The position numbers and the translations under genes were made by a program. The notes beneath the pieces were generated by a model. The model was not told the origin of the DNA. It worked only from the letters and a program-made list of their open reading frames with translations, and did not search any database. Of a stretch of DNA of 64,000 nt, positions 7,140 to 50,413 are shown in pieces. Location of the stretch: the NCBI RefSeq assembly GCF_057098645.1, contig NZ_CM169472.1; one strand, given 5' to 3'. Each line of letters starts with the position of its first letter. The stretch's first letter is position 1.

Positions 7140-7171
7140 CCTGAATCACTTACTACAGTAAGTGATTCAGG
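7140..7171. terminator. perfect 15-bp-arm inverted repeat (2-nt spacer) between the rhlB 3' end and gppA 5' end
   Basis: cctgaatcacttact-ac-agtaagtgattcagg. Confidence 0.5.
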
Positions 7172-10539: not shown

Positions 10540-10556
10540 ATTTGTCTTATGCCAAA

Positions 10557-10588
10557 AACGCCACGTGTTTACGTGGCGTTTTGCTTTT
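10557..10588 (+). terminator. intrinsic terminator after rho
   Basis: aacgccacgt-gttt-acgtggcgtt hairpin followed by a T-run. Confidence 0.8.
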
Positions 10589-29302: not shown

Positions 29303-29499
29303 GTAGATGCTCATTCCATCTCTTATGTTCGCCTTAGTGCCTCATAAACTCCGGAATGACGCAGAGCCGTTTACGGTGCTTATCGTCCACTGACAGATGT
29401 CGCTTATGCCTCATCAGACACCATGGACACAACGTTGAGTGAAGCACCCACTTGTTGTCATACAGACCTGTTTTAACGCCTGCTCCGTAATAAGAGCAG
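29303..29499 (+). ncRNA. glmZ: small RNA GlmZ (glmS activator) with its intrinsic terminator
   Basis: recognised sequence GTAGATGCTCATTCCATCTCTTATGTTCGCC...; -10 CATAAT at 29291-29296; terminal hairpin ctgctc-cgtaataa-gagcag followed by T7 at 29493-29499. Confidence 0.8.
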
Positions 29500-29556
29500 G
29501 CGTTTTTTTATGTGTCAGGAAGGCCCCGGAGGTGCTTGCCTCCGGGTGAGAAGGAA

Positions 29557-31967: not shown

Positions 31968-32705
31968 TTATAATGCCCGTAATAGCGCATCGTTGTCAGC
32001 GTTATCGGCGACCTTAATGTCATTCCAGCCCAGTTCCCGGGCGAGTTTCGCCAAACGCTCACTGACGACCAAAAGCCGACAGCGTAGTAACCAGTGCTCA
32101 CGATACCATTGTGGGATCAATGACCAGAGTTGATGCAACATTTCACCGCTGGTAACAACGACGGTAGTCACCTCGCGAGATTGCCAACGCATCGCCTCTT
32201 CTGCACCGTCATAATGAATGGCGCACCGTTGATAACATTCACAAAAAGCGACTTCAGCACCGCGTGCTGTCAGAGTTTCTCCAATCAGCTCACGACCGCC
32301 GTTGCCACGTAATATCAGCGCACGTTTGCCAGCAATATTTTGTAATTCAGGTAATTGTAGCAAGACTTCACTAATTTCCCGATCCTGCGGATAACGAACC
32401 TGGTGTCCACTCACGGTATGCAGCGCCAGCGCAGTGGTGCGGCCGATAGCGAAATAACCAGCAAGTAATGGCCACTTAAGAGCTTGCTGATGCAGTTGCG
32501 ATTGGGCATAAGCAACGGCGTGTTGCGAAAGGGCAAACAACAGATCGCCTTCACCAAGTGCTGATAGCAGGTCGGCAAGTTGTGGTAATTGCCGACCTGG
32601 GGAAAACTCTATCAGTGGAAAATGCCAGGCCACCTGCCCCAGTGTGCGCAGACGGCTCACTAACTCTTCTCCAGCGGGAGACGGGCGGGTGACCAGGATA
32701 CTCAT
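31968..32705 (-). CDS. hemD: uroporphyrinogen-III synthase
   Basis: 245-aa HemD-family ORF overlapping hemC by 4 bp. Confidence 0.92.
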
Positions 32706-46625: not shown

Positions 46626-47390
46626 TTAACCTTTCCGCTCGACGGAAATCATGGTGACAAAAGGATAGCGTTGCCACGGGATTGCCCCGCCTTTCATATA
46701 CATATGTGAAATCGTGCCATCAAGATAAAGCAGCTGCTCAACGTTCAGTTTCGCTTTGGCATAACAGGCAAAATCATAAAAATTTGTCGCCTGCTGGCTC
46801 AACAAAAACACGGCATTCCCATGTTTATTAATCCCAACACCGTTACGAATTTTACGTGAGGCGACGTTGGGATGAATACGCGGATTAATTACACTGTTTT
46901 CCATCAACATTGGCCCTGACTGCACCGCAAACTGAATCTCTTTACTGGTTTTGAAGGCATCCAGACGAACGATGCCGACTTTATCTCCCGCGACATAAAA
47001 CACGCCGCCAGGACGGATAAAGAAATTCCCTTCACCTGAAGCGAGATTTAACGCCACCTTCTGCTGACCGTTTTCGATGTACAAACCGAGCGGCGCATAG
47101 CTTTCATCATAGATGCCGCCGTTCATCGCCATCTGCACCTGACCCTGACTATTCATATCCGCCAGCAGAGCATGTAAAGTTCCCCACGCTTCGCCATTGG
47201 CTTTTTGCCAGTACATTTTCACCCGCTCTGTTTGAGGATTAACGGTATACGCCTGTACGGTCAGCGTCGGATCTGAGAGTGCGCAATCATCAGCGGCAAC
47301 AGCAAACAAGGGAAGTAAGGTGAGGGTGAGAAAAATCCGTTTGAGATTCAAGGTGATCATTCCTTTACCAATGAGTAGCCGATGCGCCAT
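46626..47390 (-). CDS. yigE: DUF2233-family exported protein
   Basis: 254-aa ORF with signal peptide (LKRIFLTLTLLPLFAVAA), upstream of corA. Confidence 0.8.
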   Translation of the reverse strand: MAHRLLIGKGMITLNLKRIFLTLTLLPLFAVAADDCALSDPTLTVQAYTVNPQTERVKMYWQKANGEAWGTLHALLADMNSQGQVQMAMNGGIYDESYAPLGLYIENGQQKVALNLASGEGNFFIRPGGVFYVAGDKVGIVRLDAFKTSKEIQFAVQSGPMLMENSVINPRIHPNVASRKIRNGVGINKHGNAVFLLSQQATNFYDFACYAKAKLNVEQLLYLDGTISHMYMKGGAIPWQRYPFVTMISVERKG

Positions 47391-47604
47391 TATAGGTCCT
47401 GGATGTGGGATTTTTTTATCCTGTTAGCGACCTTGACGAGTACCAAAAAGCGCGAAGTTCAACTATTGTTCTGTGGTGTTCTGTTGCGTGTTGACGGCAA
47501 AATTTTGCTGGCGTAACATGCGCGCACGATCACTCTAAGAGGACATTCGCCTTGGACACACCCAGTAGATACTGGCTCACTATCCTGTCATCCAGGATCA
47601 ACTC

Positions 47605-47636
47605 CTAAGGCTATCCCTTTTTGCTGATAGCCTTAG
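47605..47636 (+). promoter_or_regulatory. perfect 11-bp stem-loop in the corA 5' leader (candidate attenuator structure)
   Basis: ctaaggctatc-cctttttgct-gatagccttag; a second hairpin lies at about 47583-47598. Confidence 0.45.
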
Positions 47637-47759
47637 CGGTTGTCAGCGACCTCAATTTTTCCCGTCGCGCTGAGTCAGGCTGTTTAATGGTCTGAAACCC
47701 AATTTGTTTCTGTGTGCCCACCGAACTGTCCGATATTTTAAGCATTGGGAGTCCCGGTC

Positions 47760-48710
47760 ATGCTGAGCGCATTTCAACTGGAAAATAACCGACTGACCCG
47801 GCTGGAAGTCGAAGAGTCACAACCCCTTGTAAATGCAGTATGGATTGATCTTGTCGAACCGGACGACGACGAGCGACTGCGCGTACAATCTGAACTTGGC
47901 CAGAGCCTGGCAACCCGCCCGGAACTGGAAGACATCGAAGCATCGGCACGTTTCTTTGAAGACGACGACGGCCTGCATATTCACTCCTTCTTCTTCTTTG
48001 AAGATGCGGAAGATCACGCCGGTAACTCCACTGTGGCATTTACCATCCGTGATGGTCGTCTGTTTACTCTGCGTGAGCGTGAACTGCCCGCTTTTCGTCT
48101 GTATCGTATGCGTGCCCGTAGCCAGTCGATGGTAGACGGTAACGCCTACGAGTTGCTGCTGGATTTGTTCGAAACCAAAATCGAACAGTTGGCAGATGAA
48201 ATTGAAAATATCTATAGCGACCTGGAGCAATTGAGCCGGGTGATTATGGAAGGGCATCAGGGCGATGAGTACGACGAGGCGCTCTCCACTCTGGCGGAAC
48301 TGGAAGATATCGGCTGGAAAGTTCGCCTGTGTCTGATGGATACCCAGCGCGCTCTCAACTTCCTGGTACGTAAAGCACGCTTACCGGGTGGGCAACTGGA
48401 GCAGGCGCGTGAAATCCTGCGAGATATCGAATCCCTGCTGCCGCATAACGAATCCCTGTTCCAGAAGGTGAACTTCCTGATGCAGGCGGCAATGGGTTTT
48501 ATCAACATCGAGCAGAACCGCATCATCAAAATTTTCTCGGTGGTATCCGTCGTGTTCCTGCCGCCAACGCTGGTTGCTTCCAGCTACGGGATGAACTTTG
48601 AGTTTATGCCAGAACTGAAGTGGAGTTTCGGCTACCCAGGCGCGATTATCTTTATGATCCTCGCGGGCCTGGCACCGTATCTGTACTTTAAGCGGAAGAA
48701 CTGGTTGTAA
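47760..48710 (+). CDS. corA: magnesium/cobalt transport protein CorA
   Basis: 316-aa product [31 protein letters not shown]... ending ...[41 protein letters not shown] (GMN motif). Confidence 0.96.
48574..48710 (+). repeat. direct repeat copy 1: corA 3' terminus (about 94-95% identical to 50277-50413)
   Basis: base-by-base alignment of the two stretches shows the same length, no indels and a handful of substitutions. Confidence 0.85.
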
Positions 48711-48717
48711 TATGAGT

Positions 48718-48745
48718 GCCGGATAAAGCTATTTTTTTATCCGGC
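48718..48745. terminator. hairpin terminator after corA, shared with the convergent islet gene
   Basis: gccggataaa-gctatttt-tttatccggc followed by a T-rich tract. Confidence 0.7.
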
Positions 48746-48751
48746 TTATTT

Positions 48752-49243
48752 CTAAAAATTGTCTTTTTTAAAGTCATGCGGATTGAAAACTCGCTCTATT
48801 TTATTTTCTTGTGTTAATTGATACTCAGTAAAATCGTTAATACCAATATGAGTGTTACGATAAGGGTATTCATTAATAACCATTAAGTAATTTTTCACGA
48901 TGCAATTATCATTGCTCTTAATTGTCGGGAAACAGTAGAGATCTTCATACGGCCCTTCGATATATTTTTTATAGTCAGTGAAGCCATTACCGATATCAAT
49001 GACATACCAGATATGCCAACTACCTTCTGGTAGGGGATGTTGATTTTTAATTTCATTCTGATGCTTCAGATACCAATTTATTTTATCGCTGTCAGTCCAT
49101 GGCAGATGATCAACGACCAGAAAGACTGAATTGCCAGCATCAGAGTATGTATACAAAATCTGTACAGGACGCAATGTCCATAAATTATAGATACAGCATA
49201 GAAGAAATAAACATAATATAATTTTCTGGCGTTTGCTTTTCAT
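48752..49243 (-). CDS. hypothetical membrane-anchored protein (N-terminal TM helix, extracytoplasmic domain); candidate partner of the upstream gene
   Basis: 163-aa ORF MKSKRQKIILCLFLLCCIYNLWTL...; very AT-rich codon usage; starts 27 bp after the upstream gene's stop. Confidence 0.6.
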   Translation of the reverse strand: MKSKRQKIILCLFLLCCIYNLWTLRPVQILYTYSDAGNSVFLVVDHLPWTDSDKINWYLKHQNEIKNQHPLPEGSWHIWYVIDIGNGFTDYKKYIEGPYEDLYCFPTIKSNDNCIVKNYLMVINEYPYRNTHIGINDFTEYQLTQENKIERVFNPHDFKKDNF

Positions 49244-49270
49244 AGATAATTTTCGATTCTTTCGATAGTG

Positions 49271-50084
49271 TTAAAATTGGTGAAAAAAGGTTTGAAAGCA
49301 AAGCCTTTATGCCGTTGTAAAAAGAACCATATGCGAAAAAATCTATATTTGCTGTAAGTCTTGTTTTTGATATCAGTTACATCAAGACCGAAGTGGTCCT
49401 GTGCTACAAAATGAATTGTCGCACTCCACCCTATAGCGTATTTTTGAAAGCTTAAAAGAGATATTTTTTGAGCTGAAATATCATGAACACTGATTCCTAA
49501 GCCATTAAAACTGTCCTCGAAGTCATTAAATTTATTTAGTCTTGATGAAAGTAATTTGGTTTTAATGCTTTGCAGGATAAGAGGTTGGTATCCTGTCGAG
49601 GGAGTTGAATTAATGCCATTTTCGATACATTCTTTGATTATTCGTATTGGACTATTATAACCATATTTATTTTTTCATGAAAAGATAAATTTAATTGTTG
49701 GCTATGAAAATTGCTGCCATTTCCATATCTAAAATGTTCAATCAGATCTTCGATAAGTGTTTTATATTGTCCAAAAAAGGAAAAAATTTTTGCTAGTTCT
49801 TTCATTTCTGCAAATAAAATATCAGTGCATTCACGTTGTGATATTTTTGTTCCGGAACTTGAGGCACTAAAAGCAACATTAATAGAACCTGGGCCAGGGA
49901 AATGGTATTTAATAAGTCTGTAAGGATCAACTTTTGCTGAGATATCGCTTAGGCCGAGTGAGAGAAAATCTTGTTCTACCATATCACCATATTGCATATC
50001 ATCAGCAGAATAATCATCAAATAAACTAATAGTTTCGAAAAGTGTACAGGGAATATTAATTGATGGAAGTAATGTGTTATTCAT
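49271..50084 (-). pseudogene. hypothetical protein of about 270 aa interrupted by a -1 frameshift at an A6 run (148-aa N-terminal ORF plus about 125 in-frame codons lacking any start codon)
   Basis: ORF 49638-50084 ends ...SFHEKINMVIIVQYE*; the next frame stays open from the overlap catgAAAAAAtaaatatgg down to the stop at 49271 and contains no ATG/GTG/TTG. Confidence 0.6.
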
Positions 50085-50209
50085 TTACATTTTCCTTGGT
50101 TATATTTAAGCTCAATATCAATTTGAGAACAAATGCTAGGGTAAAAAAAATTTAAAAAAGAAGTACACTTCACATTTTTATTACATTCCGAAGGGAATCT
50201 CGTTATTGA

Positions 50210-50413
50210 TTGGTTTTGCCCATTGTTAATAACAATATGTTGAATTTACCGATTAGGAAACTTTTTCCTACGCGGATTGCCTCCAGCTATGGGATGAACT
50301 TTGAGTTTATGCCAGAACTGAAGTGGAGTTTCGGCTACCCTGGCGCGATTATCTTTATGATCCTCGCGGGCCTGGCACCGCATCTGTACTTTAAGCGTAA
50401 GAACTGGCTGTAA
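50210..50413 (+). pseudogene. displaced corA 3' fragment (last ~46 codons, [11 protein letters not shown] end); not an independent gene
   Basis: 67-aa ORF whose C-terminal 45 residues equal the CorA C-terminus with one Y to H change; no corA N-terminal region upstream. Confidence 0.8.
50277..50413 (+). repeat. direct repeat copy 2 of the corA 3' terminus
   Basis: offset of exactly 1703 bp from copy 1. Confidence 0.85.

Follow-up and report, generated by a model that had tools for sequence, protein, structure and literature searches.

In the 64,000-nucleotide stretch of DNA analysed here (the window; contig NZ_CM169472.1 of assembly GCF_057098645.1), a perfect 11-bp hairpin upstream of corA, together with a 5-bp extension of its stem, almost certainly forms stem-loop C, one half of a translation-coupled Rho-dependent attenuator in the corA leader. 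The hairpin is already known: it is stem-loop C of Salmonella, and the locus is the one that was the subject of a 2024 study in E. coli. The initial annotation had suggested that the hairpin may be the equivalent of the Salmonella corA leader element, where Rho-dependent attenuation is coupled to translation of a short leader ORF. Orthology with Salmonella, the annotation of ysgD and experiments in E. coli (PMC11552253) all bear this out, with one refinement: the 11-bp stem is the anti-termination (ON) conformer. Termination is promoted by another, overlapping structure, stem-loop B, which was absent from that annotation.

The corA locus

The genes neighbouring the hairpin are uvrD, a SAM hydrolase gene, yigE (on the minus strand) and corA, and yigE, ysgD and corA are annotated in E. 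coli genomes. The window belongs to an E. coli chromosome: positions 47300 to 47800 are found at 95% identity or more in 5425 of 5426 complete E. coli genomes. The corA coding sequence (47760 to 48710, plus strand, 316 codons and a stop) is an exact match to CORA_ECOLI. The upstream region had been described as roughly 370 bp long, which is true of the yigE-corA intergenic distance (369 bp, from the yigE start at 47390 to the corA ATG at 47760); the transcribed leader takes up only about 234 nt of it.

A consensus scan locates a sigma-70-like promoter for corA on the plus strand, at 47491 to 47519, with a -35 element TTGACG (47491-47496), a 17-nt spacer and a -10 element TAACAT (47514-47519); TTGAC and GCGTAACATGCGC are kept across the sampled Enterobacterales. 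This promoter puts the start of transcription at about 47526 to 47528, so that the leader measures about 234 nt and the 11-bp stem occupies +80 to +111, in sense orientation, downstream of the corA promoter and ahead of the start codon of the gene. The exact +1 differs by 1 to 2 nt depending on the source: Salmonella numbering leads to A47526 and the oligonucleotide names of PMC11552253 to G47528, while the termination positions given in the latter paper (U211 and G216-U220) match the bases only with a +1 at 47527.

At the other end of the gene, an accessory islet of about 1.6 kb (48711-50413) directly follows the corA stop codon. It contains a DUF943 gene (48752-49243, minus strand) and a gene of the YPO3983 family; of the 5426 complete E. 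coli genomes, 2757 have it. On either side stands a copy of the last 126 bp or so of corA, in direct orientation (48585-48710 and 50288-50413, with a few mismatches), and the downstream copy amounts to a leftover fragment encoding the C-terminal part of CorA. The islet has the look of an insertion that went into the 3' end of corA and restored the reading frame.

Geometry and stability of the hairpin

The stem-loop is present as initially described, with a left arm CTAAGGCTATC at 47605-47615, a loop CCTTTTTGCT at 47616-47625 and a right arm GATAGCCTTAG at 47626-47636; inspection of the sequence gives 11 perfect pairs out of 11, around a 10-nt loop. The extension, CAACT with GGTTG (47599-47603 and 47638-47642), brings the arm to 17 nt with 88% complementarity, that is, 16 pairs with one 1x1 mismatch, which is the longest near-perfect duplex of the corA leader. 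Two hairpins had been claimed upstream of corA, and the first is found as well: ATCCTG with CAGGAT (47582-47587 and 47593-47598), a 6-bp stem with a 5-nt loop.

The predicted RNA fold of 47575-47645 consists of exactly these two hairpins, at -27.4 kcal/mol. Dinucleotide shuffles of the same segment (n = 200) gave -12.6 +/- 2.6 kcal/mol (z = -5.67), and none of the 200 was equally stable; stem-loop C in isolation is predicted at -20.4 kcal/mol. The 64-kb window has six perfect hairpins with a stem of 11 bp or more and a loop of 3 to 20 nt, where a first-order Markov model of random sequence predicts 0.3, and the pattern of the present one is single-copy within the window even when 3 mismatches are permitted. 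The 11-bp hairpin is not a chance feature. The five other hairpins of this size (1031-1055, 7140-7171, 10555-10582, 29475-29504 and 32568-32599) are likely to be transcription terminators or elements of a similar kind.

Orthology with the Salmonella leader and identity with stem-loop C

Stem definitions were taken from the 2017 Salmonella paper (PMC5314796) and the 2024 E. coli paper (PMC11552253). Searching genome contigs with CorA returned 80 Enterobacterales loci with no Salmonella among them, and the Salmonella enterica locus was obtained via the CorA protein cluster and the contig encoding it. Alignment with the Salmonella leader had been proposed as a check on the equivalence; in the comparison with this one S. 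enterica locus, 226 of the 234 E. coli leader positions are identical. None of the 8 substitutions falls in an arm of C or B, and the arms of stems A, B, C and D are identical, as is the loop of stem C. The E. coli leader is shorter by 4 nt, of which 2 nt are in the D loop and the others are two single-nucleotide gaps further downstream; the Salmonella leader measures 238 nt when its +1 is the A aligned to 47526.

With the +1 so aligned, all 20 nucleotides named by Kriner & Groisman (PMC5314796) match, namely G24, C25, C26, G84, G85, C86, T97, C99, G105, C106, C107, G121, G123, C143, C145, C175-C177, U192 and U240, and so do their segments C47-A54 and U148-G155. Up to the D loop, Salmonella nucleotide n thus corresponds to window position 47525 + n. 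By this rule, the Salmonella mutations M1 (G84-C86) and M2 (G105-C107) correspond to 47609-47611 and 47630-47632, one in each arm of the 11-bp stem. Since M1 and M2 together restore base-pairing of stem-loop C (PMC5314796), their position in the two arms identifies the 11-bp hairpin as stem-loop C.

The E. coli constructs lead to the same place. Exact matches to the oligonucleotides of PMC11552253 lie at 47528-47548, 47568-47598, 47584-47605 and 47595-47626. In the ON mutant, CAACT and GGTTG (47599-47603 and 47638-47642) are exchanged, which preserves the extension of C and breaks the 3' arm of B; in the OFF mutant, TAGCC (47628-47632) and GGTTG are replaced by two other segments complementary to each other, so that B is retained and C lost. 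This mapping of the two mutants confirms the assignment to stem-loop C.

Mutually exclusive helices and the putative Rho loading site

The anatomy of the leader, all of it on the plus strand, is one of overlapping helices. Stem A (47549-47611) pairs GCCTTGG (47549-47555) with CTAAGGC (47605-47611), closes a three-way junction and covers the corL start codon; in Salmonella numbering, it is the pairing of M1* (G24-C26) with M1 (G84-C86), or 47549-47551 with 47609-47611 (PMC5314796). The first hairpin (P2, 47582-47598, loop tcatc), located inside corL codons 11-16, is an arm of this junction and is predicted in the ON fold too. Another predicted hairpin inside corL, P1 (47562-47575), pairs CCAGTA with TACTGG around a ga loop. 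Stem-loop C, which sequesters the rut site in the ON state, extends from 47599 to 47642, comprising 47605-47615 with 47626-47636 and the 5-bp extension. Stem-loop B, the OFF state (47621-47649), has arms TTGCTGATAGCC (47621-47632) and GGTTGTCAGCGA (47638-47649) and a TTAGC loop; it includes the Salmonella pairs of T97 and C99 with G123 and G121, that is, 47622 and 47624 with 47648 and 47646 (PMC5314796).

Stem-loop D (47646-47668; GCGAC at 47646-47650 with GTCGC at 47664-47668) forms alongside C and sequesters the downstream portion of the rut site (PMC5314796). Its Salmonella counterpart pairs G121 and G123 with C145 and C143, once the 2-nt Salmonella insertion in the D loop is counted (PMC5314796). 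Another register, TCAGCG with CGCTGA (47643-47648 and 47668-47673), was rejected, its 3' arm varying across species without compensation; we retained GCGAC/GTCGC because it is paired in 100% of the aligned sequences, shows compensatory changes and fits the Salmonella numbering, insertion included.

Stems A and C thus compete for 47605-47611, which belongs to both; C and B have 47626-47632 in common, and B and D have 47646-47649. Stems B and C are mutually exclusive, and B leaves its pyrimidine-rich flanks single-stranded. These putative rut tracts (within 47612-47663) are TATCCCTTTTTGCT at 47612-47625 and CCTCAATTTTTCCC at 47650-47663; by inspection, each has 12 pyrimidines out of 14, and the second lacks G. 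From their composition, they fit the published description of the rut site and would make up a putative Rho loading site.

Further downstream, stem-loop E (47694-47716) has a GAAAC/GTTTC core (47694-47698 and 47706-47710) whose pairs are conserved, and includes the pause site. Salmonella C175-C177 corresponds to 47698-47700 and the pause U192 to 47715, with a G at -10 and at +1 as in the consensus pause. The zone of Rho-dependent termination, converted from U211 and G216-U220 of PMC11552253, lies at 47737-47747 (+/-1 nt), just upstream of the corA ribosome-binding site.

Predicted minimum-energy folds of the growing transcript pass through A with the three-way junction (3' end at 47620), C (47637), A+B (47650) and C+D (from 47675 onwards). 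Constrained energies over 47527-47680 are -43.7 kcal/mol for A+B versus -50.1 kcal/mol for C+D. Two long-distance pairings were also noticed. In the full-length minimum-energy fold, the corL Shine-Dalgarno region GGACATTCG (47541-47549) pairs with CGAACTGTCC (47722-47731), just upstream of the termination zone; across species this pairing has a few double changes (T-A to C-G or A-T) and many unpaired cells. The segments CTGGCTCA and TGAGTCAG (47572-47579 with 47671-47678) are invariant on both sides; theirs is the long-distance pairing raised as a possibility by Kriner & Groisman (PMC5314796).

The leader ORF corL

A short leader ORF, which the initial annotation had proposed to look for, exists: corL, or ysgD (47552-47608, plus strand), belongs to the "YsgD/CorL family" of RefSeq, whose annotation was transferred here from BL21. 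It starts with UUG and has 18 codons (MDTPSRYWLTILSSRINS), and the 5' arm of the 11-bp stem contains its UAA stop (47606-47608). Inspection of the sequence places its Shine-Dalgarno motif, AAGAGG, at 47537-47542 on the plus strand; GAGGA is invariant in 75 species, and the Shine-Dalgarno of the uORF is sequestered by stem A (PMC11552253).

Among these 75 Enterobacterales species, the TTG start is found in all 75 and the length of 18 codons in 70. The stop is the aligned TAA in the 5' arm of stem C in 74 of the 75, and indels preserve the reading frame. Yersinia aldovae is the sole exception: its TAA has become GAA, and CorL is extended to 25 residues.

Residues 1-9 of CorL (MDTPSRYWL, codons 47552-47579) are near-invariant, the exceptions being A at residue 3 and K or T at residue 6 in a few species, and C at residue 7 in about 4 out of 10. 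The nucleotides of these codons are largely conserved as well, third positions included. The C-terminal half is variable, yet the length of the peptide and the position of its stop within the 5' arm of stem C are constant. As to what constrains the N-terminal residues, RNA causes (hairpin P1, long-range pairing) and peptide causes are inseparable from alignment data.

Conservation across Enterobacterales

The leader alignment covers 75 species, from Escherichia to Yersinia, Pantoea, Dickeya and Edwardsiella, and contains 69 distinct sequences. Over these 69, 95.3% of cells are paired for the ON structure and 94.0% for the OFF structure, against 19 to 47% where partners were slid by 1 to 3 columns; the shuffle controls do not correct for phylogeny. 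By stem, the paired cells amount to 99% for A, 96.6% for C, 93.5% for B and 100% for D in the same 69 sequences.

Three of the 5 pairs of stem D show compensatory changes; in Yersinia aldovae, stem D also has compensatory changes (GCAGC/GCTGC). In the first hairpin, 4 of the 6 pairs have changed on both sides among the 69 sequences (for instance, A-U in 27 versus U-A in 26), which indicates a real RNA helix despite its location in corL codons 11-16. The pairs of hairpin P1 are invariant or vary between U-A and U-G.

The 11-bp stem itself varies mostly by wobble. A47629 is replaced by G in 21 to 23 sequences, giving U-G in C and G-U in B; double changes are few (at two pairs, U-A has become C-G, each time in 2 sequences), and 20 of the 69 sequences have lost the pair 47606-47635. 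The arms that A, C and B have in common hardly vary at all, which is what one would expect of segments with two partners to satisfy. With arms of C and B so nearly invariant and variation mostly of the wobble type, covariation support for the 11-bp stem is thin.

A scan of 47200-47900 against Rfam 15 with a threshold of E <= 10 matched no family; the only hits were at chance level (mir-76, AaHKsRNA54 and sR53), none near its gathering score. The 75-species alignment could seed an Rfam family for the leader.

Published function and proposed mechanism

In Salmonella, Rho-dependent termination within the leader is promoted by stem-loop B, which exposes the rut site, and C and D sequester that site; the balance tips towards B when corL is translated efficiently, and towards C+D when its translation is impaired (PMC5314796). 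In E. coli, corA expression drops between 20 and 50 uM Mg2+, for which the 5' upstream region is required and the promoter is not (PMC11552253). The same study found Rho/NusG termination in vitro at U211 and G216-U220 of the 5' upstream region, and an increase in RNA polymerase occupancy of the ORF (by ChIP) in a rho R66S strain (PMC11552253). Changing the corL UUG to AGG raised corA expression and changing it to AUG lowered it; the OFF mutant was nearly devoid of expression, as the two-state model predicts (PMC11552253). A 2025 review names corA, in Salmonella and in E. coli, among the established Rho-dependent attenuators.

Placed on the coordinates of the window, the switch has four segments with alternative partners. 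Segment 1 (47549-47555, around the corL start) pairs with segment 2 (47605-47615) as stem A, segment 2 with segment 3 (47626-47636) as stem C, segment 3 with segment 4 (47638-47649) as stem B, and segment 4 with 47664-47668 as stem D. The exact ribosome-footprint logic, as we infer it, would be the following. When corL is efficiently translated, a ribosome at the UAA (47606-47608) would occlude the 5' arm of stem C; the 3' arm would then pair downstream as stem B, the pyrimidine-rich flanks would be left single-stranded and Rho could load, stopping paused polymerases at about 47737-47747, ahead of the corA ribosome-binding site. If corL is translated slowly, poorly or not at all, the 5' arm of stem C would be free, C and then D would form, the rut site would be buried and polymerase could enter corA.

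Two results of the E. coli study go beyond this scheme: the ON mutant was expressed less, not more, than the wild type at low Mg2+, and in rho R66S, Mg2+ regulation was weakened to 2.4-fold, from 3.3-fold, but not lost (PMC11552253). The partial effect of R66S and the low expression of the ON mutant imply that Rho and the C/B switch do not explain all of the regulation. Other factors contribute as well, ribonucleases perhaps among them. It is also conceivable, if rather unlikely in our opinion, that nascent CorL acts as a ribosome-arrest or sensor peptide, so that occupancy of the stop codon in the hairpin arm, and not bulk translation efficiency, would choose between C and B; stem C might additionally be the entry site for RNase III reported in the corA 5' UTR, which would tie the ON fold to mRNA decay.

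Three other readings of the 11-bp inverted repeat were considered. Lim et al. (2012, J Bacteriol 194:2214) are said to have described RNase III cleavage in the corA 5' UTR, and the helix of stem C could mainly or additionally be such a cleavage site, controlling the decay of corA mRNA. Two RNase III transcriptome papers name corA in their reference lists only. With its extension it is, at 16 pairs and one 1x1 mismatch, the longest near-perfect duplex that the leader offers to the enzyme; however, an RNase III substrate should offer some two helical turns (20-22 bp), 16 pairs fall short of the minimum of about 22 bp quoted for the E. coli enzyme (PMC4067347), and the full-length predicted fold has longer composite helices elsewhere. 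We regard such a role as improbable, and it would supplement the attenuator role without displacing it.

As the strongest local hairpin of the leader, situated upstream of the mapped termination zone and with sites from a terminator scan overlapping its 3' arm, the 11-bp hairpin could also be taken for the attenuator or terminator itself, acting either as an intrinsic terminator or as a fold that exposes the Rho site. However, the stem is followed by CGGTTGTCAGCG, with no U-run, and what the scan picked up is hairpin B, the alternative structure, whose T-rich tail, CCTCAATTTT, is weak. The mapping of M1 and M2 makes the stem stem-loop C, which hinders Rho-dependent termination (PMC5314796), and the OFF mutant, in which the stem is destroyed, lowers expression to near nil instead of raising it (PMC11552253). 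We consider this reading very improbable, the published mutants having already refuted it. The intrinsic-terminator class was rejected on composition as well, 4 of the 11 pairs being G-C and the stem running into CGGTTGTC, again no U-run.

Finally, that the repeat is a palindromic operator for a transcription factor at the DNA level, or a dispersed (REP-like) element, is scarcely credible despite its perfect palindromic symmetry over 11 bp on either side of a 10-bp spacer, between two divergent genes, given that it lies within the transcript (+80 to +111), is single-copy in the window, carries A47629G in 21 to 23 species with the other arm unchanged (which keeps an RNA U-G pair in C and B and breaks the DNA symmetry), and that regulation is promoter-independent and needs the 5' upstream region (PMC11552253).

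Comparison with related attenuators

The Salmonella leader (Kriner & Groisman, J Mol Biol 2015; Nucleic Acids Res 2017, PMC5314796) has corL in the same position, with the same UUG start and length, and its U192 pause and termination zone are in the same places. The E. coli 5' upstream region of Vezina Bedard et al. (RNA Biol 2024, PMC11552253) is the same locus, the ON and OFF mutants target the stem C helix, and there is no difference of substance, the numbering being 1 to 2 nt off between papers.

The leader of mgtA, with its uORF mgtL, works alike: the uORF lies in a three-way junction, A+B and C folds alternate, termination is Rho-dependent in Salmonella, and the system responds to Mg2+. 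The corA leader is nevertheless not a member of that family (Mg_sensor in Rfam), as there is no detectable homology of sequence or structure, and no Rfam family at E = 0.1. CorL has a single proline, which makes the corA leader less dependent on proline codons than that of mgtA, and corA, unlike mgtA, is not under PhoPQ promoter control. There is also a likeness to trp-type attenuators, in which the position of a ribosome on a leader ORF selects among overlapping helices (1:2, 2:3, 3:4) and the stop codon abuts segment 2. In contrast to these, the corA leader exposes or sequesters a Rho loading site, without an intrinsic terminator, and its signal is something other than shortage of a cognate amino acid.

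Enteric bacteria have CorA as their main constitutive Mg2+ channel, and the corA leader is a model case of Rho-dependent attenuation coupled to translation of a uORF. The hairpin being a characterised element that has been mutated in both Salmonella and E. coli, no further discovery work is needed on it. Our additions are modest: a coordinate map of stems A to E, corL and the rut flanks, and a survey of 75 Enterobacterales species, according to which conservation of the switch helices, of the UUG-initiated 18-codon corL and of its stop codon in the arm of stem C extends far outside Salmonella and E. coli.
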